NCBI GenBank assembly: GCA_963706325.1
Contig: CAVPLT010000001.1
Coordinates: forward strand, 992,001-1,056,000
Reading direction: 5' to 3'
Length of the DNA stretch: 64,000 bases
Origin: an uncultured Nitrospiraceae bacterium
GTDB lineage: Bacteria; Nitrospirota; Nitrospiria; Nitrospirales; Nitrospiraceae
The notes under the pieces are model-generated. The model made no database searches. It saw only the letters and a list, made by a program, of their open reading frames with translations, and was not told the origin of the DNA. Positions 1,838 to 60,564 of the stretch are shown here, in pieces. Position 1 is the stretch's first letter. Every line of letters starts with the position of its first letter. Position numbers and translations under genes: made by a program.

Positions 1838-2065
1838 CAGCATGGTCAAAAGGTCCGTCCAGCGAGGCCGTAACGAGGTCCGCGACGCGAGGAATAATGA
1901 GCATCACGCTTGCGGACGCCGGCGTGACGGTGAGCCGACTGTGTCTCGGGCCAAGGCGTCTCGTTCTTACCCGCCCGCCTGCCTAGACGGGCTCTTTTCT
2001 CATGGCGGTACGTTGACGCTGTGAACGATGCGTGGACGAAGGTGGCGGGCATTTTCAGCATCCTG
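1838..2065 (-). repeat. Family-A intergenic hairpin element carrying module B
   Basis: Ends CAGCATGGTCAAAAGG / ATTTTCAGCATCCTG. Abuts the dapF stop codon. Internal GGCCG, GTACGTTGA and module B. Confidence 0.8.
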
Positions 2066-2935
2066 CTACCGTAGCGTGCGCACGAACGACGGACTGAGGG
2101 AGCCTCGAGCCACTTCTTCGACCGGACCCTTCATGGTGAGGCTGAAATCCGGAGCGACTTCGATATTGAGACTCCCCCCTGGCATGTTCACCGTGACCGG
2201 GCCCTTGACCAGACCGAGCCGGACGGCAGCACTCGCCGCCGCGCAGGACGAGGAACCGGAGGCCTGGGTTTCGCCGGCGCCTCGCTCCCAAATGAGGATG
2301 AAGATTGCCTTGGGCCCGGTCGGGATCGCCAGTTGCACGTTGGTGCGCTTCGGAAAGAACGGGTGATTTTCAAGCGCAGGCCCGAGCAGCAGCAGGTCTT
2401 CACGGCGCCAGGTCTCGCCGGCCTTTTTGAAGAGCACGCAATGGGGATTGCCGACGCTGACACCCGTGAATTGGAGCGATTGTCCTGCCGCTTCGATAGG
2501 AACTTGGATCAATTCATCCATAGGCAGGGTACAGGGGAGTGCGGCTGGGTGAAAAGAGGCTCGCCCCATCTCGACGGTGGCCGCGGCGGCATCGCCGTGC
2601 CGATCGAGGTGGAGCGATATGGAGACCAGGCCGCCCTTGGTCTCGACGGTAAACTGTTTCTTCTTCGTCTTGCCGGTGGCATGGAGATAGCGAGCGAAGA
2701 TGCGCAATCCATTGCCGGACTTCTCAGCTTCGCTTCCATCGGGATTGAAGATACGCAGGCCGAAGTCGGCCTTCTTGGAAGGCACCAGCGCGAGGATGCC
2801 GTCACTGCCCACGCCCCAATGGCGATCGCAGATGCCGCGGATTTTACCAACGGAGAGCTTGAACGTCAGCTCTAGAGGATCCATCACCAAATAGTCATTG
2901 CCGAGTCCATGCCCGCGAAAAAACCCGTTCTTCAT
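2066..2935 (-). CDS. dapF: Diaminopimelate epimerase family protein (Ser in place of both catalytic Cys)
   Basis: HGLGND, GVGSDG, NPDGSEAEKSGNG, VGNPH, TNV, WERGAGETQASGS motifs. Confidence 0.85.
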   Translation of the reverse strand: MKNGFFRGHGLGNDYLVMDPLELTFKLSVGKIRGICDRHWGVGSDGILALVPSKKADFGLRIFNPDGSEAEKSGNGLRIFARYLHATGKTKKKQFTVETKGGLVSISLHLDRHGDAAAATVEMGRASFHPAALPCTLPMDELIQVPIEAAGQSLQFTGVSVGNPHCVLFKKAGETWRREDLLLLGPALENHPFFPKRTNVQLAIPTGPKAIFILIWERGAGETQASGSSSCAAASAAVRLGLVKGPVTVNMPGGSLNIEVAPDFSLTMKGPVEEVARGSLSPSFVRTLR

Positions 2936-3047
2936 GCCTGGTCTCCTTGAGATGGGAAGAGGTGTCCCGTTACTCCTTGCAAAGCTGGAAAAGGTACTGC
3001 GGCGATTCTTGCCGCGTCAATGGGGAGAAGCGCACACATGATAAGAG

Positions 3048-3446
3048 TTACACGAGCGCGGTCCCTGGCGGGCGTTCAATGAGTTCAACCTCGTAGCCGT
3101 CCGGCGCGTCGATGAAGATGAATCGGCTACCCGAGGAGGTACGGGTTGGGCCGTCGGTAATCTTAACCTGCTGCGATTCCAAAGCCCGGATCGTGTCGTC
3201 CAAGTTTTCAACCTCAAAGGCGAGATGGACCAGATCTTCTTGCACGGTCACAGGTCCGCTGGCAGGAAAACTACACAGCTCGATGAGTTCCTCACTATTC
3301 GGCACCTTCAGAAATGCCAAATGCGATCCGCGTGGAGACACTTTGCGTTCCATGACCTCCAGGCCCAGTACATCCCGGTAGAACTGGATGGTTTGATCCA
3401 TATTGCTGACCCGCATGCGGGTGTGAAGCAGCTTTTTCACGCGCAC
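3048..3446 (-). CDS. VOC/glyoxalase I (lactoylglutathione lyase) family protein
   Basis: LLHTRMRV, FYRDVLG, HLAFEV, FIDAPDGYEVELIE. GTG start at 3446 follows an AAGGAG RBS; the longer track start lies inside a repeat. Confidence 0.85.
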   Translation of the reverse strand: MRVKKLLHTRMRVSNMDQTIQFYRDVLGLEVMERKVSPRGSHLAFLKVPNSEELIELCSFPASGPVTVQEDLVHLAFEVENLDDTIRALESQQVKITDGPTRTSSGSRFIFIDAPDGYEVELIERPPGTALV

Positions 3447-3463
3447 GGTCCTGTCTCCTTTGT

Positions 3464-3587
3464 CGGCTGCTGAAAACATCCCCCAGCTGCGTTCTCAGTC
3501 GCTCGAACCCCTCAACGTACCCTGCCCGCGTACGCCTCGGGGTCCTCGTTCCTTGCGGCCTTGCTGGAGAATGTTTTGAGCAGCCTG
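3464..3587 (+). repeat. Family-A intergenic hairpin element
   Basis: CGGCTGCTGAAAACAT...GTTCTC...TCAACGTAC..GTACGCCTC...TGCGGCC...ATGTTTTGAGCAGCCTG. Confidence 0.85.
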
Positions 3588-3654
3588 TGAAATGATCCCT
3601 GTAAAGAACCGAAAGAGGAATTCAATAACGATCTTACCATTGCGGCGTATCACC

Positions 3655-4146
3655 TCACGTTGTCCTTGCCGGACCAGCCGTCTTACGAAGCAGAATCTCG
3701 GCGTAGCCTGGAATGAGAAAATTCGGCATGGGACCAATTTCCTTATAACCTTGCTTGCGGTAAAAGGCGCGCGCCCCCTCATTAAAATCCGACACGCAGG
3801 CGAACACATTCTTGGCCCGGGCGAATGTGAGCGATTCAATATGAGCCAGTAGCCGGCTACCGAGGCCGGTGCCTGTTGCGGAAGGGGCGATGCCGAGTAA
3901 TTCCAGATAGTCGCCGAAAAGGAATTTTCGTCGCACGATGGCGATCCCCAGCACGGTTCCTTCAGCTTCCATCACAAACGTGTCCCGAGCTTGCGGCACG
4001 GGCGAAAAGATCCTTCCCCAATCGTCGGCAGTAAACCCGAGTCGTTTCCAGGGGTCGGAATCAGTAAGGATCCCGATCACGGCATCGCGATCCTCCGGCC
4101 GCATATCGCGGATTATGGCCGGAGTGGGGCTGTGGCTTGGTTGCAT
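3655..4146 (-). CDS. GNAT family N-acetyltransferase
   Basis: GTGLGSRLL acetyl-CoA motif and N-x-x-ARAFYRKQGY. Confidence 0.85.
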   Translation of the reverse strand: MQPSHSPTPAIIRDMRPEDRDAVIGILTDSDPWKRLGFTADDWGRIFSPVPQARDTFVMEAEGTVLGIAIVRRKFLFGDYLELLGIAPSATGTGLGSRLLAHIESLTFARAKNVFACVSDFNEGARAFYRKQGYKEIGPMPNFLIPGYAEILLRKTAGPARTT

Positions 4147-4835
4147 CGTAAGAGGTCCGATACCGTCAGCGGAGTCAAGCCCTTGTCAGGCAGGACTGTG
4201 GTGGCTAAAGTTGTGGTTACCTCCCGGGTATGTTTGCCCTTCCCGTTAGCGTGCAACACGATGACACTGCCCGGCTTCATGTGTTTCCGCAGGCGGGCCA
4301 GAATCGCGTCCGCCGTGAGGGTCGGATCGGGGTCTCCCGACTCGAGACTCCACATGATAAACCGCAAGCCCAGAGCATTCACCGCTTCCACTGTCTGATC
4401 GTTATATTCCCCGTAGGGTGGTCGAAACAGGGTCGTCGAACGGCCGTATTTCGTCTTGAGGATTCGCACCGGTCCCACGATCTCTCGTTGTTGTTCTTCC
4501 AGCTCATGCATCGGGAGATGCGCATGCACCTCGCCATGCGTCCCGACTTCGAAAAATGGAACGGCCAAGAGCTCTTTCACCTCGGCGTCGTGCTTGGCCA
4601 TCCACCGACCGGACATGAAAAATGTGGCTGGAACTTTGTTCATAATGAGGAAATCGATTAATTCGCGGTCGAATCCCGGGGCGGTGCGCACCGGACACAG
4701 ATCATAGGTCAGCGCAACCGCCGGGCATGAGGGAGAGCCGGCCCTGATGACCTGGGCCTCCGCTAGATGGCCATGCACGACCAGCGCCATCGAACACATC
4801 GCTGATAGAGTCACTTGACACAGGTTCCATCGCAT
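4113..4835 (-). CDS. Polysaccharide deacetylase (NodB/CE4) family protein with signal peptide
   Basis: ALTYD, ATFF, H-x3-H, FRPPYG, VIVLH motifs. Confidence 0.85.
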   Translation of the reverse strand: MRWNLCQVTLSAMCSMALVVHGHLAEAQVIRAGSPSCPAVALTYDLCPVRTAPGFDRELIDFLIMNKVPATFFMSGRWMAKHDAEVKELLAVPFFEVGTHGEVHAHLPMHELEEQQREIVGPVRILKTKYGRSTTLFRPPYGEYNDQTVEAVNALGLRFIMWSLESGDPDPTLTADAILARLRKHMKPGSVIVLHANGKGKHTREVTTTLATTVLPDKGLTPLTVSDLLRCNQATAPLRP

Positions 4836-4908
4836 GGAGGGGAGTATACCCGATGACAGGGACCGGCGATAGTTGACGGTCTGTCAAGGTGGCTGCTACG
4901 GTGACCAT

Positions 4909-6066
4909 ATGCAGGGACCTGCCTGGCAAATCGGTCGAGTGTTCGGAATTCCTATCTACGTGCATGCCTCATGGCTCTTCGTATTCTTCTTTGTGACCTG
5001 GTCGCTGGCCACAGGGTATCTGCCCGACATGCTACCAGGTCTCTCAGAGCCGCGGTATTGGGGGATGGGCGGGGTGGCCGCGCTTCTCCTGTTCGCATCG
5101 GTCCTGCTGCATGAACTCGGTCACTCCGTCGTTGCCCTTCGTTATCACATTCCCATCGGCCAAATTACGTTGTTCATTTTCGGTGGAGTGGCACAAATGC
5201 GAAAGGAACCGCCGCATCCGAGGGCGGAATTTCTCATCGCCATTGCAGGCCCGATTGTCAGCTTCTTTTTGGCGGGGCTGTGTATGAGCCTGGTCTTGTT
5301 GTTGGAATGGCTCCCGTCCGGGGCCTCTCTGCAGGGGTTAACGGCGCTCGGCGCACTCCTTGGGATGGTCAATACGCAGCTAGGCCTCTTCAACCTGCTG
5401 CCGGGTTTTCCGCTGGACGGCGGCCGAGCCCTGCGGGCGGGTCTTTGGGCTTGGAGTAAGGATTTCTATCGCGCGACGAGCCAGGCGGCATTGGTAGGAT
5501 TGCTCTTCGGTGTCGGTTTTGGTCTCTTCGGAGCGCTACTGCTGGTCGGCGCACTTTCCGGGACCCTGTCGAGCGCCCTGGCAAGTAGTGGGGGATGGAT
5601 TGTGCTGCTGGGGGCTTTTCTTTTCACGGCGGCGCGCGGAAGTCGCAAGCAGGCGGTGATCCGTGCGTCGTTAGCGTCGGTGTCCGTCCGCGAGCTCATG
5701 GTCAAGAACGTGGTGTCTCTATCCCCGGACATCACGCTGGAAGAAGCCGTACATCAATATTTCCTGCCCTACGGCTATGGGGGATTTCCGGTAGTGCAGG
5801 ATGGGCGGCTTCTAGGTATCGTGACGGTGCGTGAGGTACAGGCCGTCAACAATCCGCTCTGGGCGTTTCGCCGGGTTGCCGAGGTGATGCAGACTTCCAA
5901 TGACGAGATGATCGTATCGCCGGAAGTGCCGGTGATACAGGCATTGGAGAAAATGATGTCGTTTGGGGCAGAGCGGCTGATCGTGGTGCAAGATGGGGAA
6001 CTGCTCGGCCTGCTGACGCGCGCCTCTATCGGCAACTTCATCGAGCAGCGCAATCCATCCAAGTAG
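4909..6066 (+). CDS. Site-2 protease (M50) with two C-terminal CBS domains
   Basis: HELGH, IAIAGP, FNLLPGFPLDGGR, then CBS repeats. Confidence 0.92.
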   Translation: MQGPAWQIGRVFGIPIYVHASWLFVFFFVTWSLATGYLPDMLPGLSEPRYWGMGGVAALLLFASVLLHELGHSVVALRYHIPIGQITLFIFGGVAQMRKEPPHPRAEFLIAIAGPIVSFFLAGLCMSLVLLLEWLPSGASLQGLTALGALLGMVNTQLGLFNLLPGFPLDGGRALRAGLWAWSKDFYRATSQAALVGLLFGVGFGLFGALLLVGALSGTLSSALASSGGWIVLLGAFLFTAARGSRKQAVIRASLASVSVRELMVKNVVSLSPDITLEEAVHQYFLPYGYGGFPVVQDGRLLGIVTVREVQAVNNPLWAFRRVAEVMQTSNDEMIVSPEVPVIQALEKMMSFGAERLIVVQDGELLGLLTRASIGNFIEQRNPSK

Positions 6067-6094
6067 GTCATCCCACACCGCCTATTCTGTGCCA

Positions 6095-6285
6095 CAGGAT
6101 GCTTAAATGGCGACTTTCTTACCCGCCCAATCCCGGCGCGTCAAAGACTCGCCCTGCCCCACGCAAGGCCGCAGCGAGGTCCACGGCGCGAAGAATAATG
6201 AGCGCCACGGCTGTGGACGCCGGCGAGCCGGTGAGCCGCAGTGTCTCGGGCCGCGGCGTCTTGTTCTTACCCACCCGCCCCCACG
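6095..6285 (-). repeat. Family-A element (one end decayed) carrying module B
   Basis: CAGGATGCTTAAA end, CAAGGCCGCAGCGA, module B at 6176-6246, TTCTTACCCRCCC motifs. Confidence 0.7.
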
Positions 6286-6442
6286 GTGCCCCCTAACGTG
6301 AGGAGGTCTTTGTCGAAGCCGTTGAAGATCGTGAAATTCGTGTGGGCTGCCGGATGATTCGAGTGTTTCATGATTTTATCAGGCACGGACGAGGGCGCTG
6401 GAAAAGTCGCGAATGAGACAGAGCGCAGGTTGCGACCAGAAC

Positions 6443-7297
6443 CTACTGGGGCAGAAGTTCGGTCGTAGAGGCTAAGGGGGAAGGCCGCCGACACTGATAG
6501 GTGTGGGTTACCACTGCGCCCAGGAGGACGAGGGCCGAAGAGTAGTAGACCCAGAGGAGTAACAACACCACTTCGAGCAATGAGCCATACATCTGTGTGT
6601 AGACCGCGGCATCTTCTAAATAGGTCACGAACACCACCTTAGCGGAGACCCACAGCAGGCTGAAGACCGCCCCCCCGATGGTCGACTCTTTCCATGTGGG
6701 CCGCTGGTGAGGAAGGAATCGATAGAGACAGGTGACGGAAGCGAAGGCAAGCAGAAACGGCAATGAATAGGCGAGCAGGAAATCGTGCGCGGTGATCGCG
6801 ACCAAGTCGAGTCCCCACAAGTGCGGCGCATAGGCAGTCAGCAATTCAATAGCTTGTGTGGCAACAAATGAGATCAGGGCCAGAAAGCCGAGCATCCAAA
6901 TCATCGCGACGGCCACGAGCGTTGAAATCAGCGGATGCCGCTTGGCCGCCGTGCCGAACACAGTATTCATGGCGTAGTCTAGTTCATAAAATACCAGCGC
7001 GCTGAACCAACCGAATGCGAGGAAAACGGCCCATCGCACTTGCTCCTGCTCCGCCACGCGCCGAATATCTTTTGCCAGACGTTCACCCATGCTGGGAAGA
7101 AATCCCTTCAGGAATCCCAACAAGAATTGATAGCCGATGACGTCCTGGCTCACGATGAAGCTGATGCCGTAGAGCAAGAGGAACACCATGGGAAAGAGCG
7201 AGAGGAGGGAAAAGAAGGCCAGCGAAGCGGCCAGACTGAGACAGCCTCGCCGCCTAAAGGTTTCAATTACGTTGGAGAGAAACGATAATCCGATCAT
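6443..7297 (-). CDS. YihY/BrkB family membrane protein
   Basis: AASLAFFSLLSLFP and YGSL...LLLWVYYS...LLGA. Confidence 0.9.
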   Translation of the reverse strand: MIGLSFLSNVIETFRRRGCLSLAASLAFFSLLSLFPMVFLLLYGISFIVSQDVIGYQFLLGFLKGFLPSMGERLAKDIRRVAEQEQVRWAVFLAFGWFSALVFYELDYAMNTVFGTAAKRHPLISTLVAVAMIWMLGFLALISFVATQAIELLTAYAPHLWGLDLVAITAHDFLLAYSLPFLLAFASVTCLYRFLPHQRPTWKESTIGGAVFSLLWVSAKVVFVTYLEDAAVYTQMYGSLLEVVLLLLWVYYSSALVLLGAVVTHTYQCRRPSPLASTTELLPQ

Positions 7298-7433
7298 GCA
7301 AGCCCGTCTTGAGCCACGCCGACGCGGTTAGACCATCGGCCGGGTGCTGCCGGTCCTGTGGTGATGAATGTCGGTGCGCCACGATAACAGAGAACGGGGA
7401 AGGTTGCATGAGGATGCAAGAGATGCCCATCCG

Positions 7434-8909
7434 TTATTTCAGTAACGGTGCCGCATGGGTGGCCATTGACCATAGGCCGTTGGGGAACAGCCCCAGGAGC
7501 ACGACGCCGGCAAGAGCGCAGGCGAGGACGAACGATAGAGCCGGAGAGGTTTCGAATTGTGACTGAGATTGTGGCAAGCCTTCGGGATCGCGCATGTACA
7601 TCACCATCACAATTCGCAGGTAGTAGAAGGCAGAGATCGCGGCGAAGATGACGGCGACGACTGCCAGCCATGCCATTCCACCGTTCACCGCGGCCATGAA
7701 GATATAAAACTTGCCGATGAACCCTGCCGTCGGAGGAATGCCGGCCAGCGACACCAGAAAGACCAACATGAAAAAGGCCCCCAAGGGTTCACGTTTCGCC
7801 AGTCCCGCATAATCTTCGATGTTGTCGCTCTCCTGACCGTCTTTGCGCAGCATCCCCACCAGCGCAAATGCGCCAAGCGTCATGAACGAATATATCGCGA
7901 TGTAGAGCAACACACTTGCGAGGCCGGTTGAGGCGGCCATTCCGCCTTGCCGGCCCGCCACGACGACCCCGATGAGGGCATAGCCGGCATGGGCGATGCT
8001 GGAATAGGCCAACATACGCTTGATGTTGGTCTGCACGATTGCAACAAGGTTGCCCAAGGCCAGCGTCGCCAGGCAGATGACGGTGAACAGGATCGACCAA
8101 TCCGCGCTCACCCCTCCCAGGCCCTCCACAAACACCCGGAGAAAGGCGCCGAAGCTGGCCGCTTTCGAGGCAACGGCCATGAAGGCCGTGACAGACGTCG
8201 GCGCTCCCTGATAGACGTCCGGCGTCCACATGTGAAACGGCACGACGGCCAATTTGAATCCGAACCCGACTGTCAGCAACACCAGCGCCAGGGACAATAA
8301 GGGATTGCCCGTTCCCTGCGCGGCGATCTCCTCTGCGATCACAGAGAGACGAGTGCTCCCGGCCAGCCCGAACAAGAGCGAAATGCCGTACAAGAGAATT
8401 CCGGATGAAAACGCTCCCAGCACGAAATACTTTGCCGACGCTTCCAGCGAACGCGCCTCAGTTCGCTTGAGTCCGGCCATCACATAAAGCGAGAGGGACA
8501 TCAATTCGGTGCCGAGGTAGATCGTGAGGAGGTCGGCGGCGGAGACCATGACCATCATACCGACCAGCGATAGCAGGATGAAGCCGTAATATTCGCCGAT
8601 GTTCAATCGCTCCGCCTTGAGGTACGCGAGGGACAACAGGACCGTGAGCCCCGTCACGATATACAGCAGTAGTTTCCAGAAGGCCCCATACGCATCGATC
8701 ACAACCAGATCGCTGAAGGCATATTGGCGACCCATCAATTGAGAGGAAGTGAGACCTAGGCAAATAGCCAGGGCTGCTAAAGTCAGCCAAGCCAGGAGGT
8801 CCTTCTTGGAATCCGCAAGGATGGGATCCAGCACCAGGATGAGGCAAGCCGTGCCGATCACCACGAGTTCAGGAAGGATCGCGAGCAGGTCTTGTATGGG
8901 AATCGTCAT
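7434..8909 (-). CDS. nuoN: NADH-quinone oxidoreductase subunit N
   Basis: EASAKYF, FKLAVVPFHMWTPDVYQGAP, KRMLAYSSIAHAGY; operon position. Confidence 0.97.
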   Translation of the reverse strand: MTIPIQDLLAILPELVVIGTACLILVLDPILADSKKDLLAWLTLAALAICLGLTSSQLMGRQYAFSDLVVIDAYGAFWKLLLYIVTGLTVLLSLAYLKAERLNIGEYYGFILLSLVGMMVMVSAADLLTIYLGTELMSLSLYVMAGLKRTEARSLEASAKYFVLGAFSSGILLYGISLLFGLAGSTRLSVIAEEIAAQGTGNPLLSLALVLLTVGFGFKLAVVPFHMWTPDVYQGAPTSVTAFMAVASKAASFGAFLRVFVEGLGGVSADWSILFTVICLATLALGNLVAIVQTNIKRMLAYSSIAHAGYALIGVVVAGRQGGMAASTGLASVLLYIAIYSFMTLGAFALVGMLRKDGQESDNIEDYAGLAKREPLGAFFMLVFLVSLAGIPPTAGFIGKFYIFMAAVNGGMAWLAVVAVIFAAISAFYYLRIVMVMYMRDPEGLPQSQSQFETSPALSFVLACALAGVVLLGLFPNGLWSMATHAAPLLK

Positions 8910-10477
8910 CGTCCGGTGGCCTGTTCAGAAGATGGAGTCGTGGGCGACGCGGCGATCGCGGCAGTGGACACTGGTTCTGTGCTGGGCTCAGGCCGGGGTT
9001 CAATCGCAAACACCGGCGTCCTCGGGGCGGCTAGCAAGTGCGCCACACTGGCATGCATTCGGGTCAGCAGAGGGTTGGGGAAGATGCCGATCACGAAGAC
9101 CAGGACGACCAGAGGGACCAGCGTGGCCGTTTCCCGAGCATTCAGGTCCAACAGATGCGCGCGATGCGTGGGCGAGGGATTTCCAAAAACCATTCGTTGC
9201 ATGAGCCAGAGGATATAGGCCGCTGCCAAGATAATGCCCAAGGCAGCGAAGGCCGTGGCGACCTTGCTCCAGAGGAACGTCCCGGCCAGCACCAGAAATT
9301 CGCCGACAAAGCTATTGGTGCCGGGAAGTCCTAAAGAGGACAGCGCAAAAATCATCAGGAACAGGGCATAGCGAGGCATCGGCCCGGCCAGTCCGGTATT
9401 GTCGAGAATTTCGCGGCTGTGGGTCCGCTCGTAGATGATCCCCACGCAGAGGAAGAGTCCGCCGGTGGTGATGCCATGGTTGACCATCTGCATGACCGCG
9501 CCTTCGATCCCTTGGGTATTCAAGACGAAGATGCCCAGCGTGACGAAGCCCATGTGACTCACGCTGGAGTAGGCGATGAGTTTTTTCATGTCGGTCTGTG
9601 CCAGGGCCATGTAAGCGCCATAAATAATGGCGATGATCGACAGCGCGATCATCGGCTTGGTAAATGTGACGGTCGCGTCCGGCAACATCGGCAAGGTAAA
9701 GCGGAGAAATCCATAGGTGCCCATCTTCAACAACACGCTCGCAAGAATCACACTGCCTGCAGTGGGAGCTTCCACGTGCGCGTCCGGCAACCAGGTATGA
9801 AATGGAAACATGGGGACTTTCACCGCAAAGGCGGCGAAGAACGCGAGGAACAGCCACATTTGCAGCGACGCACTGTACGTGCCCCGACTCAGCACCAGGA
9901 TGTCGAAGGTCTGCCCGCCGTGGAAGTAGAGGGCGATGATCGCGACCAGGAGCAAGAGGCTGCCTGCCAAAGTGTAGAGAAAAAATTTGATCGCGGCATA
10001 CAGGCGGTTGGGTCCTCCCCAGACGCCGATGAGCAAATACATCGGGATCAGCATGGCTTCCCAGAATACGTAGAACAACACAAAATCGAGGGCGACGAAG
10101 ACGCCCAGCATGGCCGTTTCCATCACCAGCAACATCGACATGAACAGCTGGACGCGTTTTTCGATCGCCGTCCAGGACACGGTGACGCAGAACGGCATGA
10201 GCAAAGTTGTCATCAGAAGTAGCGGAAAGCTGATGCCGTCGAGGCCGAGACTATATTGCACGGGCGGGGACGTAATCCAGGAGGCTCGTTCGACGAATTG
10301 CATCTCACCGGTTGAAGAGTCGAAGAGCCACCACAGCGGAAGCGAGCAGAGAAAATCCGCCACGGTAATGCCAAGCGCCAGCCAACGGGCGGACTCCGCC
10401 CTCACCAGGAGACAGAGAACGGCTCCCAGCAGGGGCAGGAAAATGATCAGACTGAGCCAGGGAAACGAACTCGTCAT
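8906..10477 (-). CDS. nuoM: NADH-quinone oxidoreductase subunit M
   Basis: FYVFWE, VKVPMFPFHTWLPDAHVEAP, LKMGTYG. Confidence 0.97.
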   Translation of the reverse strand: MTSSFPWLSLIIFLPLLGAVLCLLVRAESARWLALGITVADFLCSLPLWWLFDSSTGEMQFVERASWITSPPVQYSLGLDGISFPLLLMTTLLMPFCVTVSWTAIEKRVQLFMSMLLVMETAMLGVFVALDFVLFYVFWEAMLIPMYLLIGVWGGPNRLYAAIKFFLYTLAGSLLLLVAIIALYFHGGQTFDILVLSRGTYSASLQMWLFLAFFAAFAVKVPMFPFHTWLPDAHVEAPTAGSVILASVLLKMGTYGFLRFTLPMLPDATVTFTKPMIALSIIAIIYGAYMALAQTDMKKLIAYSSVSHMGFVTLGIFVLNTQGIEGAVMQMVNHGITTGGLFLCVGIIYERTHSREILDNTGLAGPMPRYALFLMIFALSSLGLPGTNSFVGEFLVLAGTFLWSKVATAFAALGIILAAAYILWLMQRMVFGNPSPTHRAHLLDLNARETATLVPLVVLVFVIGIFPNPLLTRMHASVAHLLAAPRTPVFAIEPRPEPSTEPVSTAAIAASPTTPSSEQATGR

Positions 10478-10571
10478 GAATACTTGGCCAAGAGTCCATG
10501 GCAGCGGAAGCAGGATACGCAGGCGATTCCTGACGACCGATGACCAGTGACCATTGATTCCCCTTCCGTTT

Positions 10572-12470
10572 CTAGAACAGCAAATACACGGTCAAAATAA
10601 CCACGGCGCCAAGTGTCATGCCGAGGGCGTAATGTTGCGTTTGTCCGCTCTGCGTCAAACGAATGATCCAGCCTCCCCAGGCAACGGCGCGGGCGACTCC
10701 GTTGACCGCGCCATCGATGATCGAGACATCGACATGTTTCCACAGACCGTTAGCGGCTGATAACGTAGGACGGACAAACCAGCGGTCGTAGATCTCATCG
10801 ACATACCACTTGTGAAGCGACAACTCGTAGGCCGTGCGCCACTGCTGCGCGAGCCGATTCGGCAAGTTGGGGTTCAGCACATACAGATAGTACGCGGCAC
10901 CGATCCCGGAGAGTCCCATCAAGGTAGCGAACGCCATGATGCCATAGGCGGCAGGGCCTTCATGCTGCGCGGCCGCGTTGTGGCCGTGGAAGACCGGTTC
11001 CAAAAATTCGGGAATGCCTAGATAGCCGGCGACGATACTGAGGACCGCAAGAATCATCAGCGGTACCGTCATCGTGGTCGAAGGTTCATGAATGTGGCCC
11101 GCATGATGAGGATCGACATGAGAGGGCCCCCAGAAGGTCATGAAGACCAGACGGAAACTGTAAAAAGCCGTAAGGCCTGCGGTCAGCAGTCCGCAAACCG
11201 TCAGGAACTGTCCTAACGGACCGGCCGACCATGAAGAGATCAGGAGATCGTCCTTGCTGAAGAAGCCTGCCGTCAGAGGGAAGCCCGCCAGCGCGAGCGA
11301 TCCAACGAGAAAGGTCCAATAGGTGACCGGAAGCTTGTCTTTCAAGCCGCCCATGCGCCGTATGTCCTGCTCATGGTGCAAAGCGATGATCACCGAGCCG
11401 CAACCGAGGAACAGCAGTGCTTTGAAGGCGCCGTGAGTCAGGAGGTGGTACATGCCTGCGCCGTAAGCGCCCAAGCCGCATGCCATCACCATGTAGCCGA
11501 GCTGGCTCATCGTCGAATAGGCCACCACACGCTTAATGTCGGTCTGGGTGAGGGCAATCGTTGCTCCCAGTACCATGGTGAGGGCGCCGACGAGGGCGAC
11601 GACCGTCATGGCGGTGGGCGAAAGGTTATAGAGCGGCGACAATCGCGCGACCATGAAGACCCCGGCCGTCACCATGGTGGCGGCATGGATCAATGCGGAG
11701 ATCGGCGTCGGTCCCTCCATGGCATCGGGGAGCCAAACGTGTAAGGGAACCTGCGCGGATTTTCCGACCGCTCCGGTAAAGAGCAGAAGGCAGATCATCG
11801 TCATCACTGAGACATCCCATGTCCCGCCGAAGGGTCCGAGCAAGTTCATTGTTTTGGATGCCAGGTCTTGAGCTTGCGCAAACATCGTGGCGTAATCGAG
11901 GGAGCCGAAGGAATACCATACCAGGAACAAGCCGAGGATGAAGCCAAAGTCTCCCACACGGTTAACCAAAAAGGCTTTGGTGGCGGCGGCGCAGGCGCTC
12001 GGTCGCTCATACCAATGGCCGATCAGCAAATAGGAGCAGAGCCCCACCGCTTCCCAGAAGACGAACAGTTGCAGCAGATTGTCCGCCATGACCAGCATCA
12101 GCATGGAAAAGGTGAACAGGGCGATATAGGCGAAGAAGCGGGCGTATCCCGGTTCTCGCTGCATGTAGCCGATCGTGTAGATGTGCACCAGGGTGCTGAC
12201 GGTCGTGACCAGCACCAGCATGACGGCAGTCAGCCGATCGATCGAGATTCCGATATGGATATCCAGGTTTCCCGAGGTCAGCCAGGTGTAGAGGGGGACA
12301 TTTACAGGATGGCCGGTGGCGACGTCGCACAGCGCCAATAGCGAGAGCACGAAGGACCCCACCATGGCTGGAACGGCAATCAAGTGCGCCCGTTCCTTAA
12401 TCCATTGTTCACCGATGCCCACGATCAAGAAGGCGAACAAGGGGAGAAATGGAATCAGTGTGTAGAGCAT
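10572..12470 (-). CDS. nuoL: NADH-quinone oxidoreductase subunit L
   Basis: GKSAQVPLHVWLPDAMEGPTPISALIHAATMV and C-terminal TQSG. Confidence 0.97.
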   Translation of the reverse strand: MLYTLIPFLPLFAFLIVGIGEQWIKERAHLIAVPAMVGSFVLSLLALCDVATGHPVNVPLYTWLTSGNLDIHIGISIDRLTAVMLVLVTTVSTLVHIYTIGYMQREPGYARFFAYIALFTFSMLMLVMADNLLQLFVFWEAVGLCSYLLIGHWYERPSACAAATKAFLVNRVGDFGFILGLFLVWYSFGSLDYATMFAQAQDLASKTMNLLGPFGGTWDVSVMTMICLLLFTGAVGKSAQVPLHVWLPDAMEGPTPISALIHAATMVTAGVFMVARLSPLYNLSPTAMTVVALVGALTMVLGATIALTQTDIKRVVAYSTMSQLGYMVMACGLGAYGAGMYHLLTHGAFKALLFLGCGSVIIALHHEQDIRRMGGLKDKLPVTYWTFLVGSLALAGFPLTAGFFSKDDLLISSWSAGPLGQFLTVCGLLTAGLTAFYSFRLVFMTFWGPSHVDPHHAGHIHEPSTTMTVPLMILAVLSIVAGYLGIPEFLEPVFHGHNAAAQHEGPAAYGIMAFATLMGLSGIGAAYYLYVLNPNLPNRLAQQWRTAYELSLHKWYVDEIYDRWFVRPTLSAANGLWKHVDVSIIDGAVNGVARAVAWGGWIIRLTQSGQTQHYALGMTLGAVVILTVYLLF

Positions 12471-12485
12471 GGCCGATACGGGAGA

Positions 12486-12791
12486 CTAGCGTTTCAACAA
12501 ATTGAGGTCGTCGACGTAGATCGATGAGTTTGCCCGATGAAGGGCGATAATAATGGCCAGGCCGACGGCAACTTCAGCCGCCGCCACAGTGAGAGCAAAG
12601 AACACGAACACTTGCCCAGCGACATTGTGAAAGTATTCAGAGAAGGCCACAAAGTTGATATTCGTGGCATTCAGCATCAATTCGACGGACAGCAAAATGA
12701 CGATGATGTTGCGGCGAATTAATACCCCAATCACTCCGGTGAGGAATACAAACCCACTCAAGATCAAATAGTAGGATAACGGAACTGTCAT
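12486..12791 (-). CDS. nuoK: NADH-quinone oxidoreductase subunit K
   Basis: RRN..ELMLN, AAAEVAVGLA. Confidence 0.97.
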   Translation of the reverse strand: MTVPLSYYLILSGFVFLTGVIGVLIRRNIIVILLSVELMLNATNINFVAFSEYFHNVAGQVFVFFALTVAAAEVAVGLAIIIALHRANSSIYVDDLNLLKR

Positions 12792-13318
12792 GGCCTCACC
12801 GATGGGGACGGCGCACTCTCACCGGTATCCTTCTTGGCCAAAATGATCGCCCCGATCATCGCGACCAACAAAATCAGAGATGCGACCTCAAAAGGGAATA
12901 GATAGGTGGAGTACAGGACTTCGCCGATCGTTTCGGTATTGCCGGCTGCGGCGACCGGATCAGCCGGAGGCGCTGCCCCAGATGCCCCTACGCGAGATTG
13001 AATAAGAAGCAGAACCACTTCCGTACACAACACGACGCCGAGCAGCCCCGCGACCGGCAGTTGGTTGTGATAGCGCTCCTCGGTCTTCACATTCAGCAGC
13101 ATGACCACGAAGAGATACAGAACCAGGATCGCACCGGCATAGACGACGATCTGGACCGCGGCCAGAAACTCCGCATGCAGGGTGACGTACAGGCCCGCGA
13201 CATGAAAAAACATGATCAGCAGGGCAAGAGCGCTGTAGACGGGATTTCGCAGTGTCACGACCAAAAGCGAGGTGACTGCGATCACGCCGGCGAAATAGAA
13301 GAAAAAAATGTGGTCCAT
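12788..13318 (-). CDS. nuoJ: NADH-quinone oxidoreductase subunit J
   Basis: NPVYSAL, QIVVYAGAILVLYLFVVMLL, PFE. Confidence 0.96.
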   Translation of the reverse strand: MDHIFFFYFAGVIAVTSLLVVTLRNPVYSALALLIMFFHVAGLYVTLHAEFLAAVQIVVYAGAILVLYLFVVMLLNVKTEERYHNQLPVAGLLGVVLCTEVVLLLIQSRVGASGAAPPADPVAAAGNTETIGEVLYSTYLFPFEVASLILLVAMIGAIILAKKDTGESAPSPSVRP

Positions 13319-13447
13319 GTGGCTGTCGAGTATCCCAAATCAGGCCCAACCCCTCTTGCTCCCTGTTGTCTTGCGCATTGTCCGATGACAGCCCGCTGCG
13401 ACTCGCTCCTCTCTGTGCCGGGGGATCACGGAGAGCGAGCCGGGCGA

Positions 13448-14023
13448 TTAATGCTCCTTTTGCGGGAGATTCTTGAATGCGACGTTGAAAAACGCCACAT
13501 TGCGGTGCTGTAGCTCAAGGCGTTTTTCCCGAACGGGAAAGGAGCGGTCGCCGATGGCGAGCAGTTGCTCCTTGTTAAGATGGAGCTGGCGCTTGTCGTA
13601 GACGGCCCATTCAAACTCGCGCGTCATTCCCAAGGCATCTACCGGGCAGGCATCCACGCAGAGGCCACAGAAGAGACAGCGGGTCATATCCATGTAGTAT
13701 TCTTTGGAGTACCGCTTGGTCGGTTCCCCGGGGACTTCAGCGCTGACGACTCGAATCACGCGCGAGGGGCAGGCGGCCTCGCAGAGATCGCAGCCGACAC
13801 ATTTCTCGGTGCCATCGTCGTATCGCAGCAAGGCGAGCATGCCGCGATAGTTATCCGGCAAAATGCGCTTCTCGTGCGGGTACTGCAGGGTGATCGGTTT
13901 GTAGTTAAGCAAATGCGTGAGTGTGGCTTTCATGCCTATGAGGAGTTCGTAGAAGGTCAACGTCTTCAGCCAATCGCTGAGAGATAGTTTTCGTTTCGGT
14001 TGTGCCGAGACGGCGGCGTTCAT
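13448..14023 (-). CDS. nuoI: NADH-quinone oxidoreductase subunit I
   Basis: Two CxxCxxCxxxCP [4Fe-4S] motifs and TLQYP. Confidence 0.96.
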   Translation of the reverse strand: MNAAVSAQPKRKLSLSDWLKTLTFYELLIGMKATLTHLLNYKPITLQYPHEKRILPDNYRGMLALLRYDDGTEKCVGCDLCEAACPSRVIRVVSAEVPGEPTKRYSKEYYMDMTRCLFCGLCVDACPVDALGMTREFEWAVYDKRQLHLNKEQLLAIGDRSFPVREKRLELQHRNVAFFNVAFKNLPQKEH

Positions 14024-14032
14024 GTCCCTCCG

Positions 14033-15100
14033 TTACCGAGGAAAGAAATAGGCGGCGATGGCTGTCAGCACGATGTTTCCCAACGCGATGGGTAACATCA
14101 CTTTCCAGCCGAACCGCATCAGTTGGTCATATCGCAAGCGCGGCAGTGTCGCGCGTAACCAGAAAAACAGGAACAGAAAGAAGTACACCTTGACGGCAAA
14201 CCAGACGACGTTTTCCATCCAGGCGATGCGTTCCAGGCCGATGTATTCGAGGATGGTGCCGGGATAGGGCGCGTTCCACCCTCCGAGGAACAGCGCGGCC
14301 GCCACGCAGGAGACCAAAATCATGTTGGCGTATTCCGCGATGAAGAAAAAGGCGAAGCGCATGCCGCTGTACTCGGTGAAGAATCCTGCCACCAGCTCGC
14401 TCTCCGCTTCGGGCAGGTCGAATGGGACACGGTTGGTTTCCGCTACCGCGGAAATGACGTAGACCACGAAGGCGAAAATTTGCGGGAACGGCATGGCCAG
14501 GACGTACCAATTCCAAAACCCGCCGGCCTGCGCCTCCGTGATCTTCACGAGGCTGAGCGAGCCGGAGAGCAGAATGACGCCGACGATCGCGAGTCCGACG
14601 TTCAATTCGTAGCTGATCACCTGCGCGGCGGAACGGAGTCCGCCGAGAAGGGAATACTTACTGTTCGAGGACCAGCCGCCCAGGATGATCCCGAAGGCGC
14701 CGATCGAGGCAAAGGCCAAAATGTAGAGAATCCCGATGTTGATGTCGCTGATGATGAACGGCTTGATCTGCATGCCGAATAGCTCGATGGTCATGCTCGG
14801 ACCAAACGGGATCACCGCAAAGCCGATCATCGCGGGCACGAGCGCCAGGATCGGCGCGAGGGTAAACAGGAACTTGTTGGCTCCGGCCGGGATGATGTCT
14901 TCTTTGAAGAATAATTTGAGACCGTCCGCGATCGGTTGCAGAACGCCATAGGGGCCGACTTCCATCGGGCCCATGCGATCCTGCATCCAGCCGAGAACTT
15001 TCCGCTCGGCGAGGGTGAGGACCATGACGGTCAGCATCACCACCCCCATCACTGCGGCGATTTGAGCCAACGACACCGCCAGTCGCAATCCAATATCCAT
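14033..15100 (-). CDS. nuoH: NADH-quinone oxidoreductase subunit H
   Basis: [41 protein letters not shown]. Confidence 0.97.
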
Positions 15101-15125
15101 AACGACAATACTCCCTCGTTCTGTC

Positions 15126-17795
15126 TTACGAGACCTTCTCTAACGACACCCGCGCGAGCTTAAAATAGGGGATTTGAGTCTGGGGATCAATCATCCAATC
15201 AGCGAGCTGCTTGGCCTCGCCATCAAAATGTTCCGGGAACCAGACCAAGCCGACGGGCACACGCTCGCGCACCTTTACGGTCGTTGTCATGGCCGCACGT
15301 GGATTCGAAACCCGAACCTGTCCTCCGTCCGTCAGGCCCAATTTGGCGGCATCCACCGGATTGATCGACAGAAAGCCCTCTTGCTGCAATTGGAGAAGTC
15401 CCTTGGAGCGGGTCGACAACTTTCCGGAATGAAACAGTGTCTGGACGAACATAAGGGTGAATTGATCGCTGTCTGTCGAACGCGCCGGTGAGAGGGCATA
15501 ACGAGTCGCCAGATCGTCTGTAAATCCTTTGGTCAGATATTGGGTCAAAATGGGCTGATCCACTTTAGGTGTCGTCGGCGTCGGTCCCAGCAGACTATAA
15601 CCAGGGATAACACTTCGAATCTCTTTCAAGATTTCACGCGCATCTCCGTATTCAAGAGGCGAACCCATCAGCACGGAGATGGCTGAGAGTATTTCCCAAT
15701 CGGGACGGCTGTCGCCCACCGGATCAATCGCTTGGCGGACCGCCTGGACATGTCCTTCGGAGTTCGTAAAGGTTCCGTGTTTCTCCACATACGAAGAGGC
15801 CGGCAGCACCACATGGGCCATTGCTGCGGTTTCGGTGAGGAACAATTCCTGGCAAACCAGCAGCTCCAGCTTCGCGAGGCCTTCCTTGGCTTGGGCTGCG
15901 GCAGGCAGAGTGCCGACGGGGTTTTCTCCAACGATAAACATCGCTTTCATCGCGCTCTTGTTTGCAGCGGCCAGCATGTCGGTCAGCGAGGCGCCGGGAG
16001 TGCGAGGTAATTCCTCCCGCCACACTGTCGCGATGCGGTCGCGGGCGGCCTGGTCGTTGAGAGGCGCAGGACCTGGGAAAAATTCGGCCATCGCGCCCAT
16101 TTCAACAGCGCCTTGATCGTTGTTCTCTTCAGCGAGTGGCCCAAGCCCGCACCCTGGTTTGTCGAGTTTGCCCAGCAGGATCAGCAGATCCAGGAGATTC
16201 GTGAGGATGTCCTGTCCGCCTGGCTGACGCAGCACGCCATTTCCGACCAGGATGACCAACCGCTTCGCCATGGCCAATGTCTGCGCAGTCTCCGCCCACT
16301 GGGATCGTGTCTGACCGGTGGCCGCTTCCAAGGCCTCCCAGGAAGCGCCCGCCACAGCGGAAGTCAGGCGTTGCACAAATTCCGACGCCTGTTGAGACGT
16401 GGTCGCGTCGAACAGGTTCTGTTCGAGGACTGCTTTGATCAATCCGATGACGGTATTCCCGAATTGCGCCGGGTAGGTGAGGAAATGCTGGGCGGCCAAG
16501 TTGACGATATTGCTCAGCGTATCGATTGCCGGTTGCAGGGTTTCGATCGTCACGAGCGTCGCCTGACGTTTTTTGACGGCTTCTTTCACCCTGAGGCCCG
16601 TGACAGGACTCGTCTCGGTAATATTCGTGCCGACCAGGAGCAGAGTGTCGGCGGCGGTAATGTCTTCGAATGCGATGCTCCACCGGTGGGTGCCCTGCAC
16701 CCGTCGCAAGGCCTGCACCCCGCTGATATGTCCATACCGAGCGCTGCTGTCGATGTGATTGGTGCCGATCACCTGGCGCATGAATTTCTGAAACAGATAG
16801 AGGTCTTCGTTGGTGCAGCGAGACGTGATGAGCCCGCCGAACGCATCCGGCCCATGAGATAACTTCAGGCGCAACGCCTGCTCGGCAACATATTCCAGCG
16901 CATCTTCCCAGGTGGCCTCGACCAATGTGCCGTTGCGGCGGATCAGAGGGTGCATGAGACGGTCGGGGTGGGTGGAGACATGGAAGCCGAAAAAGCCGCG
17001 TGCGCAAAGATCGCCGTTGTTCCGGCCCGCTCCATACTGCGAGTTGACCTCGATCAGTTCGTTGCCCTTGGTTTGCACGGTAATCCGGCAGCCGTCCCCG
17101 CAGAAGGTGCAAATGGTTTCGGCCCGCTTGAGCATCCAGGGGCGATATTCGTACATGGACAGGCGGCTCACGATGGCCCCAACGGGACAGATCTGCACGC
17201 AGCCCCCGCAAAATTCGCAGTCGAGCTGATGGGCCGCGAAATGTTTGATCTCGGTCATGGTGCCGCGGCCGACCGGCGCCAGCGCTTTCACGTCCATGAC
17301 TTCGTCGCAATAGCGGACGCAGCGCAAACATTGCACGCAGCGGTTCATCTGCGTTTCTATGAGCGGGCTAAAGTATTCCTTCTGGAAGATGCGCTTGGTC
17401 TCCGTAAATCGGCTTGTCGTCGGGCTGTATTGGTGTGAAAAGTCTTGCAGGTCGCACTTCCCCCCTTGATCGCAGACCGGACAATCGAGCGGATGGTTGG
17501 CCAGGATGAATTCCAGCACTGATTTATGCGCATCGTCGACGACGGTGGTGGCGGTTCGAACGGACATGCCTTCGGCCACCGGCGTACTGCAGGCGGTCTG
17601 GAGTTTCGGCATCTTTTCGACTTCGACGAGGCACATCCGGCAGTTGGCGTCCGGCTTCAGTTTGGGGTGGTAGCAGAAATGCGGAATCATCACGCCCACG
17701 CGCCGGGCCGCTTCTATAACGAGCGTGCCCTTGGGGACCGCAACCGTGGTGCCGTCGATCGTGAGGCGAACTGTTTCTGTCATTGGATCAGCCAT
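15126..17795 (-). CDS. nuoG: NADH-quinone oxidoreductase subunit G
   Basis: [31 protein letters not shown], CxxCxxC motifs, CTFCGDGC; molybdopterin-fold C-terminus. Confidence 0.95.
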
Positions 17796-17899
17796 AGTCA
17801 GACTACATATCCTGATGTGCCGACGGGTTCATGTGGAAAGCGTGCAACGTGATGGACTCGCGAAGACTCTCCAGCCACATGTCGGCACAAGGCTCCATG

Positions 17900-19207: not shown

Positions 19208-19229
19208 ACCCTTAATCTCGTGCAGCGCC

Positions 19230-19303
19230 GCACGTGGAGCGTGAAAGCGCGGGAAGTTCCCTCAGTTCGAATTGCGACCGTCGAAAGACGATTCACGTTT
19301 CAC
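19230..19303. repeat. Degenerate heptamer repeats (CGTGAAR / TTCACG) in inverted arrangement
   Basis: CACGTGGAGCGTGAAAGCG...GATTCACGTTTCACGC between nuoE and nuoF; similar tract at 54475-54580. Confidence 0.5.
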
Positions 19304-19836: not shown

Positions 19837-19942
19837 TATCTCTTATCTATGCCCGCTACCAAGATAAGGCGTGAGGGCACCATGTTCCAACGTGCGCGCG
19901 TCCGCAAGTAGCCCCGCACAAGCCAAGAAACGCAGGTGTATG

Positions 19943-20009
19943 GCGCCTCCAAGTGCGCGCATCGAGCGAGCACATTCTGATCGTGCGCGATCTGCGAGCA
20001 AGGAGGCAC
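19943..20009 (+). repeat. Family-C intergenic hairpin element
   Basis: GCCTCC-AAGTGCGCGCATCGAGCGAG..GCGCGATCTGCGAGCAA-GGAGGC. Confidence 0.75.
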
Positions 20010-20024
20010 TATCGACCCTGGCGT

Positions 20025-21776: not shown

Positions 21777-21786
21777 CGTCCTCGAT

Positions 21787-22266: not shown

Positions 22267-22302
22267 AGCCTTTTCCTTTCTCTCCCCAGTTGGAGGGGAT
22301 GA

Positions 22303-54473: not shown

Positions 54474-54474
54474 G

Positions 54475-59071: not shown

Positions 59072-59167
59072 AGGGAGTTACCTGGCGATCCTTCACTGCC
59101 CGCATCGGACGAGCAGATTCTAATCGTGCGCGTTCTGGGAGCAAGAAGGATCGCCGGGTGGCTCCCT
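59072..59167 (+). repeat. Family-C intergenic hairpin element
   Basis: AGGGAGTTACCTGGCGATCCTT/AAGGATCGCCGGGTGGCTCCCT stem enclosing CACTGCCCGCATCGGACGAG...GCGCGTTCTGGGAGCAAG. Confidence 0.82.
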
Positions 59168-59219
59168 CTCTTCCCTTCTCCTTGTTTTTTCTTTGACCCG
59201 TTCGCTATACTTCGGCCTT

Positions 59220-59510
59220 ATGAGTATCAGGAGAGCGGCCGGTGATTGGGAGCCCATGCTGCTGGGGATTGAACCCCGGAACTGCAAAGTTTGCCAACTC
59301 GGGCTCTATCGCGATAAAACGATGTGGCGCGGTGGGTGGTCGCGCTGTGCGCGGTGCGACGAATTCGTGCATTACAGTTGTCTTGCCAGCGGGAAAGTCA
59401 GCTTTCTGAAGGCGCGTCCACGCATTTGCAAGACCTGCCGTGCCGCTGAGCAGCAGTCGAAGCAAGTCGTGCTGCCCCCTTCCAGCGAACCCGCTCCAGT
59501 AGGATCATGA
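59220..59510 (+). CDS. Small Cys4-His-Cys3 zinc-finger protein (PHD-like)
   Basis: CKVC...WSRCARCDEFVHYSC...ICKTC. Confidence 0.75.
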   Translation: MSIRRAAGDWEPMLLGIEPRNCKVCQLGLYRDKTMWRGGWSRCARCDEFVHYSCLASGKVSFLKARPRICKTCRAAEQQSKQVVLPPSSEPAPVGS

Positions 59511-59842
59511 CCCTCCTCCTCGAACCACATCAACGCTCAGCCAGACCAAACTGGCATGTGTACTTTTCCCACGTTCTTCGGTATGTGCTCGCACCGATGC
59601 TATTCCTCTCAAGCGGGTTCTTCACGTCCAACTTCATCATGATCGGGCACTACACGTGGCCTAGAACCAGCCGGGTATTCGTGCTGACATTGACCCTGCT
59701 CATTTTAGCCTACGAGTTCATTTACAAGGATCAGACGGTCCGATCCGCTTTGCCGGACCGGGCCTTCAACGCCGTGCTGTACTCCTGCATGATCCCCTAC
59801 GCGCTTGGCGCGTTGATGATGCTGGGGCTAGCGAAACTGTAG
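59507..59842 (+). CDS. Hypothetical membrane protein (about 3 TM)
   Basis: Hydrophobic segments; ATGA overlap with the upstream gene. Confidence 0.7.
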   Translation: MTLLLEPHQRSARPNWHVYFSHVLRYVLAPMLFLSSGFFTSNFIMIGHYTWPRTSRVFVLTLTLLILAYEFIYKDQTVRSALPDRAFNAVLYSCMIPYALGALMMLGLAKL

Positions 59843-59906
59843 CAGGATGTTGAAAAATCCCCCAGCTTTGTTCTCGCATCGCTGGGTGGTCTTTTTGAAC
59901 ATCCTG
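59843..59906 (+). repeat. Internally deleted family-A element at a stop codon
   Basis: TAG|CAGGATGTTGAAAAAT CCCCCAGC..GTTCTC..GCTGGG..CTTTTTGAACATCCTG. Confidence 0.85.
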
Positions 59907-59965
59907 TAAGTATCTGCCGGACGATTCCAGACGCAGGAACCTTTAGCGGTCTTCAACAGGTGACT

Positions 59966-60340
59966 ATGGGGCAGCGGTTTCAAAGCGGCGCCTTCGTGCA
60001 GCAATGTTTCGCGGTCCATCCCCTGTGTTTATCGCTGAAGCGAATTGATGCTGAGGGACGCCTGCTCGTTTCTTGCACCTCCTGCCGCATGATGCACCAG
60101 ATGGTGACTACCCAAATAGTGGCGCGAGTGGCCGCCGTCCCGCTCGGCGGTGAGGTGATCAGCGCTAAGGCGCTCCCGACTGCCAAGGAGCTCCTGACGA
60201 CCTGCGTTCAGACCCATCCCGAGGCGGTCACCATTCGGGAACTCGATGTGATCCGCGATAACGTGGGCTTGCGCTGTGGTGAGTGCCGCCGAATGTATGA
60301 TTTGCAGGTGTCGATGTTTGAATCTCACCAAAAGTCTTAG
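59966..60340 (+). CDS. Hypothetical protein with duplicated C-x3-HP...CxxCR motif
   Basis: QCFAVHP...CTSCRMMH and TCVQTHP...CGECRRMY. Confidence 0.75.
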   Translation: MGQRFQSGAFVQQCFAVHPLCLSLKRIDAEGRLLVSCTSCRMMHQMVTTQIVARVAAVPLGGEVISAKALPTAKELLTTCVQTHPEAVTIRELDVIRDNVGLRCGECRRMYDLQVSMFESHQKS

Positions 60341-60564
60341 TCGGATGCTGAAGTCCGCGGGCAGAGTTCTCGCCTCGTTCGGACCCTCAACGTACCCCCT
60401 GTGGGAACAGAGCCTGCCTCTGCAGGCTCGGAGTGGGCGGGTAAGAACCGTGACGCCTTTGGGGCAAGACACCGCCGGCTCACTTTCTCGCCGGCGTCCA
60501 CAGACCTGGCGCTCCTTATTCGTCGCGCCGTGGACCTTGCTGGACGGCCTTTTTGAGCATCCTA
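60341..60564 (+). repeat. Family-A element at a stop codon, carrying module B (minus strand)
   Basis: TAG|TCGGATGCTGAAG...GTTCTC...TCAACGTAC...module B 60467-60538...CCTTTTTGAGCATCCT. Confidence 0.85.

Follow-up and report, generated by a model that had tools for sequence, protein, structure and literature searches.

Module B is a small folded repeat that occurs four times in a 64,000-nucleotide stretch (hereafter the window) of the genome of an uncultured Nitrospiraceae bacterium (contig CAVPLT010000001.1, positions 992,001 to 1,056,000), and it is apparently an undescribed, cross-phylum cassette of the nested small-repeat kind. We read it, tentatively and from sequence comparison, as a cassette that is non-coding and non-autonomous and has other small repeats as its hosts, and for which solo jumps, a single-stranded intermediate and a trans-acting HUH-like enzyme are all proposed. 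The spread of tiny non-coding bacterial repeats, such as repetitive extragenic palindromes (REPs), small dispersed repeats (SDRs) and nested palindromes, is a long-standing question. B is a good handle on it, offering a fold that is conserved through hundreds of natural variants, a 5′ junction that is sharp, cultured carriers, a target–tail coupling that is testable with one base, and empty-site references in an intact tRNA, in B itself and in orthologues.

One strand of B folds into a bulged arm (P1, 6 bp; P2, 7–8 bp), proposed to stack on a second hairpin (P3), which is followed by a tail of 4–5 nt. Direct checking bore out the four copies reported in a preliminary description of the window, in coordinates, strands and stems: the outer stems of copies 1 to 4 are GTCCGC/GCGGAC, GTCCAC/GTGGAC, GTGCGC/GCGCAC and GTCCAC/GTGGAC, and the inner stems GACGC/GCATC (with one C-A mismatch), GGCGC/GCGCC, GACGC/GCGTC and GGCGC/GCGCC. 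The length of about 72 nt given there had to be corrected, the module proper measuring 63–67 nt, with up to 3 nt more in the source genus. The leading GAG or AAG (3 nt) of the copies is host sequence, and B therefore starts at 1878, 6179, 22362 and 60535, as follows:

1878–1947, plus strand: module B copy 1, with the P1/P2 arm at 1878–1917, the P3 hairpin at 1918–1939 and the tail at 1940–1944; CTC at 1945–1947 can pair with host GAG at 1875–1877
6179–6247, plus strand: module B copy 2, with a 1-nt deletion in P3, preceded by host GAG at 6176–6178
22362–22431, plus strand: module B copy 3, preceded by host GAG at 22359–22361, in the nuoA–nuoB gap and antisense to both genes
60466–60535, minus strand: module B copy 4, preceded by host AAG at 60538–60536

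Copy 3 is common to three species (the source genome, G000, and genomes G023 and G012). At copy 4, the CAAG junction has the appearance of a deletion that removed 11 nt of host between two CAGCRAG repeats. Across the 4.24-Mb source genome, iterated nhmmer found 27 copies at E ≤ 1.2e-10 and 2 weak ones; with 27 strong matches, the copies are not due to chance.

A strand-specific structured fold had been proposed from the four copies, and covariation across 58 diverse copies bears it out. The alignment (A2) holds 47 of 52 representatives (<93% identity) plus 11 others. Two-sided changes occur in 16 of its 23 pairs (207 cells), with 0 of 500 shuffles as high, and the three helices have 81% paired cells compared with at most 42% in slid controls; both the shuffles and the slid controls leave relatedness in place, and the P3 signal is biased by the search pattern used to collect copies. 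At many positions of P1 and P2, three or more types of pair occur. Single-sequence DNA folding is weak for the decayed copies 1 and 2 (z of -0.1 and -0.5) and good for copies 3 and 4 (-2.2 and -2.7); the case for the fold rests on covariation.

A stricter parser, run on all loci, gave 307 distinct copies, of which only 12 are from G000, where the remaining copies are decayed; its filter favours G-T over A-C, and that ratio is not used here. The first base is G in 297 of the 307, P1 has 6 bp, P2 has 8 or 7 bp, and the bulge has 4–6 nt. The conserved "purine loop" of the preliminary description is actually a tandem G-A/A-G pair, one V-K base pair and a GAA(T/G)AA hexaloop. The tandem GA/GA of P2 is present in 247 of the parsed copies and replaced by Watson-Crick pairs in 54 (CA/TG in 22, GC/GC in 26, GA/TC in 6), and it is shifted into P1 in one subfamily. 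Because it is either kept or swapped for Watson-Crick pairs, the fold is strand-specific and its geometry is kept; the tandem G-A and an invariant G-T can form on one strand only. The second hairpin was also confirmed, but the ten nucleotides said to lie within it are not free, consisting of GA, G-T, a 4-nt loop and GA, the same build as P2. The tail has the consensus C-G-G-R, and the type common in the source genus ends in A/C-GTGT-CYY. Three further structures were tried and rejected: a K-loop, because the V-K pair covaries and the tandem GA swaps to Watson-Crick pairs; an HDV-like pseudoknot of the tail with the 5′ strand of P2, with which the tail does not covary; and a universal closing stem between host RRG and tail CYY, which pairs fully in 19 of 82 left-flank clusters, not above shuffles, and is a lineage feature.

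B is found in 39 of 39 genomes of the genus, with 1–79 matches each (model R2), and in 11 of 151 genomes of the phylum (model R1). Under strict filters and with the carrier counted, R2 also finds it in 2 of 151 genomes of the phylum of a delta-proteobacterial carrier and in 3 of 151 of the order of a clostridial one. A scan of GTDB with the P3 pattern gave at least 122 stretches, and 19 loci were set aside by eye, 15 of them as chance. Carriers among the P3 matches listed are Nitrospirota, delta-proteobacteria, Planctomycetia, Omnitrophota, Thermoanaerobaculia and Anaerosolibacter. B and the same hosts are also present in named Nitrospira records, and clostridial, nitrospirote and planctomycete copies are 53/61 identical. 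Four patterns run on viral contigs gave one match only, judged to be chance, and blastn found no B in plasmids and phages. Rfam gave no match in the window at the gathering threshold, and when 10 loci were searched at E ≤ 1 no match fell on B. No described family matching B was found in the literature, in line with the preliminary description, which did not recognise one, although the Geobacter supplementary alignments could list it.

The claim that B never stands alone holds almost throughout, as 26 of the 27 strong copies in G000 lie, by eye, in a host repeat: 14 at a site termed A1, 6 at A2 and 6 in family C (one degraded). Host family A is a rod of 120–125 nt (paired ends in 45/71). Its terminal repeats match DUF772 transposons of the genus in 4 of 8 loci examined and it inserts at CTAG, which together make it an IS5-type MITE (miniature inverted-repeat transposable element). 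In G000 the B sites A1 and A2 are symmetric within A; a third lies in the apical stem, and there is also a fourth. B also occupies two sites of family C, further Nitrospira repeats, both arms of a delta-proteobacterial A-like repeat (delta-A), two sites of a clostridial repeat (H1 and H2), and the variable loop of tRNA-Pro in a tRNA-Pro gene copy (L399). It nests within itself up to three deep and forms tandem arrays. Links between flank clusters, with bodies within 3 mismatches and flanks unrelated on both sides, involve 33 of the 82. The hosts in the window are:

1838–2065, plus strand: host A element with copy 1, a MITE with IS5-type terminal inverted repeats, with B at A1 and module D at about 1964–2005 in the apical loop
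6095–6290, plus strand: host A-type element with copy 2, right end lost, B at A1, a D-like insert in the left arm (from 6116), and what remains of D from 6264 on; the right limit is approximate
22317–22470, plus strand: host family-C element with copy 3; right limit approximate
60342–60564, minus strand: host A element with copy 4, with D starting at about 60447 on the minus strand; limits approximate

Module D and a D-like insert (1964–2005, 6116–6165, 6264–6290 and 60400–60447 in the window) are pyrimidine-rich cassettes that occupy A's apical loop and left arm, and D is present or absent at orthologous A copies (L009, L023, L565). By crude gene calls in G000, A elements are scarce in divergent intergenic gaps (1/67, vs 323/1417 gaps), and their structured strand is on the G-poor strand in 43/67 (p=0.027). 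Elsewhere, B sits in a palindrome derived from the 3′ half of tRNA-Pro and repeated downstream of an rph-linked tRNA (L217, L240, L264, L325, L326); further loci with B in this palindrome are L345, L378, L385, L428 and L497. Arrays of B with fragments resembling tRNA 3′ ends (L336, L355, L370, L407, L409, L413, L423) and tandem arrays with a 92-nt unit (L366, L369, L425) were also seen. Delta-proteobacterial records hold tiny palindromes of about 17–20 nt and an insert of roughly 100 nt inside B or its hosts (L262, L272, L275, L161).

Site-specific insertion, as proposed for B, holds for the 5′ junction, which is fixed, but not for the 3′ junction, which varies, losing 0 to about 10 host bases. 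The junction motif C(G/A)AG gives way to RRG, a degenerate motif that serves at four sites within host A alone and across many hosts that are unrelated to it. RRG stands directly before the module in 65 of 82 left-flank clusters, against a background of 9.5%; these clusters count events imperfectly and give too many, some splitting one site and one lumping several. It is already present in the empty host at A1, A2, A3 and C2, in B itself, in tRNA-Pro, at the right site of delta-A and at clostridial H2. On the 3′ side, one base is changed or lost in tRNA-Pro, 2–4 are replaced in A and about 10 are lost in G157, while in the clostridial host 4 are lost and an extra mini-hairpin is carried along. 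No target duplication surrounds B in the tRNA-Pro host, and a 3-nt duplication is ruled out by the commonest junctions, AGG/GGA and GAG/GTG. There is no fixed paired or unpaired state at the insertion site; flanks, with a median z of -0.83 (n=78), fold better than their own intergenic DNA, with one of -0.05 (n=80; p=0.006).

Host position -2 and tail position 3 are coupled, reading G-G in 45, A-T in 19 and A-A in 3 of the 82 clusters. These 67 fits compare with 49.3±3.1 in shuffles within body classes (0/5000). Two clostridial sites seen later fit as well, H1, a new site, with A-A and H2, akin to a site already counted, with G-G. A link between -3 and tail base 4 is not significant within body classes (921/5000), and a mirror or triplex link beyond -2 was rejected on this test. 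The antiparallel purine triplex code reads G-G, A-A and T-A, which is the pattern of this coupling. Descent of AG- and GG-type lineages together with microhomology accounts for it equally well.

How B spreads can be followed in orthologues. In 1.19 Mb of G023 compared with G000 (flanks about 90–95% identical), six B loci of G000 have orthologues: three share B, one holds a different repeat, and two hold the same A without B and without D. One further decayed B copy is common to both genomes. At C4:722287, the A copy carries B and D in G000 but is plain, with the same private bases, in both G023 and G017, of which G017 is the more distant; G000 therefore gained B and D there. The private central base of host A has been lost, the B–D tract resembles two other G000 loci, and the patch is bounded by GAG on the left and a 10–15-nt stretch on the right. 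Judged from these bases, the gain is a replacement patch from a paralogue: since a resident A copy had its central part replaced, the spread of B inside a host family would be paralogue conversion and not solo insertion. The earlier suggestion that B inserts into other repeats is not supported as it stood, the only polarised gain having come as a B+D conversion patch. The presence/absence pair at C7:136903 is unpolarised, because the two outgroup loci read there (of four found) are without A altogether. The case shows that short conversion patches carry cassettes from one resident MITE copy to another, which inflates apparent site specificity. Positions 3050–23000 of the window were also compared with three DNA and one RNA contig sets, and no joint among those listed leaves out copy 2 or copy 3; since rare forms are lost from contigs, nothing about excision follows from this.

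We propose that B spreads at two levels. Within a host family it would be copied between paralogues as a short-homology replacement patch, along with neighbouring cassettes (such copying was seen once with polarity and once without), and it would also ride along as its host MITE transposes. At the second level it would occasionally colonise a new host, or B itself. An HUH-type nick-and-join enzyme, encoded elsewhere, would recognise the folded single strand, cut exactly before the first G and join B, at RRG, to the 3′ end of a host. Resolution of the 3′ side would be loose, with 0–15 nt of donor flank taken and host bases lost. The conserved shape and loops would be what the trans-acting factor recognises. 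HUH enzymes leave a single 5′ end that is exact and linked through phosphotyrosine, and the cuts made by TnpA-REP fall at several positions about its hairpin (PMC8266576).

Several results weigh against this two-level proposal. No solo gain of B was caught between relatives at the G000/G023 orthologous loci (1.19 Mb), and the filled flanks at the left site of delta-A and at clostridial H1 differ by one base from the empty sites seen, as if the flank had been brought by the donor. No Watson-Crick guide covarying with the target was found, the sole strong link being that of -2 with tail base 3. In a search that was not exhaustive, G000 had no Y1 transposase, and none of 30 Y1 loci from the genus had a B copy nearby. 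ORF (open reading frame) clustering and motif scans revealed no recurring mobile protein beside B, and the named ORFs flanking it (sets of 45 and 39 ORFs) are ordinary cellular genes. Nor did a replichore test, in which most copies ride hosts, find a bias (46 vs 62; G-rich strand 46/108, p=0.15, four genomes, measured skew).

Across G000 and its genus, no link to B was seen for the families Y1, IS110 and DUF772, and their presence did not track its copy number (by eye, no statistics). Three close inverted B pairs enclose ordinary-looking ORFs. A conserved Y1 protein of 279–292 aa with a C-terminal HTH-like end and a short bordering inverted repeat (L065–L076, L084) occurs in many genomes of the genus, not in G000, and resembles the TIRYT class of PMC6006769. 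Y1 proteins of 144–150 aa form another class in the genus. Two adjacent IS110 DEDD-domain matches (G000:C7:911250-913204; L001, L002) are the sole ones in that genome.

A possible account, although a less probable one than the two-level proposal, dispenses with a dedicated enzyme: B would be a nuclease-resistant folded fragment of single-stranded DNA whose 5′ end is the foot of P1, patched in by RecA-independent annealing or fork template switching, with new hosts reached through 2–4 nt of RRG microhomology and members of one family through longer homology. The polarised gain is indeed a conversion patch, with its right crossover within about 10–15 nt; the head forms and copy 4 would be microhomology deletions, and descent with microhomology would explain the -2/tail-3 coupling. 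Oligonucleotides recombine without phage proteins, with the lagging strand preferred (PMC2920528, partial text), and the bias of host A towards the G-poor strand points the same way, but B itself has no significant strand bias. This account also explains neither the scarcity of 5′-shifted copies nor the fact that different phyla have retained the hexaloop, the lengths of the helices and the tandem GA.

An RNA intermediate seems unlikely. Here a B RNA with a 5′ end defined by processing or self-cleavage would be copied by reverse transcription and joined through either target priming or template jumping, which predicts an exact 5′ junction, a ragged 3′ junction and small target deletions; such asymmetry fits target-primed reverse transcription. 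B also lies on the tRNA sense strand in all tRNA contexts seen (the tRNA-Pro variable loop and 3′ repeats, tRNA-Ser-like arrays and a tRNA-Thr island). However, G-U-type pairs are scarce, with 47 among about 5300 stem cells when one subfamily position is set aside, gene-sense bias is absent in G000 (B 7 vs 8, A 21 vs 26), Rfam gave no match, and motif scans found no reverse transcriptase beside B. A contig from an RNA library spans copy 3 unchanged, which is weak evidence, the copy being antisense.

We consider it improbable that B is a self-targeting mobile single strand, whose 3′ tail would read the target purine run by the antiparallel purine-triplex code and whose tandem-G-A fold would recruit a host nick-and-join enzyme or partly catalyse the joining. 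Service to the host cell is more doubtful still. B would then be kept as a protein-binding or transcript-stabilising element that spreads passively, in keeping with its presence in every genome of the genus, the conservation of the nuoA–nuoB copy in three species and the avoidance of divergent promoter gaps by host A. Its copy number of 1–79, self-nesting, tandem arrays and insertion into a tRNA gene copy speak against this, as do the many decayed copies and the unbiased orientation to genes. Least probable of all is an ordinary IS200/IS605 palindrome-associated transposable element (PATE) or IS110-family MITE with an unsampled autonomous parent, which would suit the hairpins at both ends, insertion 3′ of a short motif and lack of duplication in the tRNA host, but not the imprecise 3′ junction, the absence of a core repeated at both ends, the genus IS200 ends unlike B, the IS110 element that sits inside B as its target (L487), or the 59 IS5/IS110 loci scanned without other B-like sequence save two chance-level or edge matches.

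That IS110 element, of about 1.1 kb, lies in a B copy of G012 (L487:993-2100, C43), and another of 0.75 kb lies in an A copy of G047 (L482:1250-2000, C69); both have a CT core on the minus strand. Since it splits a B copy, B is a target of IS110, as REPs are. The bridge RNAs of these elements may target the A/B repeats.

Among known systems, the cyanobacterial SDRs that Elhai et al. are said to have described in 2008 are reportedly very small (21–27 nt) and structured, nested in other repeats and tandem heptamers, and without target duplication, their mobiliser being unknown. On this description, B is likewise small, structured and nested in other repeats without duplication; it differs in being about three times longer, in its three helices with tandem G-A, in its fixed 5′ RRG junction and in spanning several non-cyanobacterial phyla. 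The REP/BIME/REPIN group shares with B strand-specific intergenic hairpins of similar size, mosaic nesting and a role as IS110 targets, going by partial texts (PMC8266576, PMC6006769, PMC3733652, PMC3116915). Unlike these, B has no GTAG/CGTC tag at the hairpin foot in its alignments (A1, A2) and no doublets; its junction is RRG^G and not C^T, and no B-flanked tyrosine transposase or RAYT was found.

The IS200/IS605 PATE resembles B in having a hairpin near each end (PMC6006769), and it inserts 3′ of a fixed 4–5 nt target without duplication; B may be comparable in this, following RRG in 65 of 82 clusters and showing no duplication in the tRNA-Pro host. B has subterminal hairpins at each end in form, since P2 and P3 covary, yet they are unlike the genus IS200 ends; moreover, its target is degenerate, its 3′ junction ragged, and it shows no Watson-Crick guide covariation and no lagging-strand-template bias, with no autonomous parent or cognate TnpA found (G000 and 30 genus Y1 loci). 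IS5/IS1182-type MITE features, namely DUF772-like terminal repeats and CTAG insertion, belong to host A. B differs from a DDE MITE in lacking terminal inverted repeats and target duplication, both of which host A has, and from an IS110-family MITE in sharing no core at its junctions in tRNA or A hosts. The "multicopy nucleotide sequences" of Geobacter are similar in forming families of intergenic palindromes, with non-random clustering in shared gaps, and in the partial texts of their sources are catalogued without fold or junction analysis (PMC2700814, PMC2996986).

Elsewhere in the window, positions 39786–40377 hold three 126-nt direct repeats, spaced 232–234 nt, at the start of an 898-aa ORF (39973–42669).

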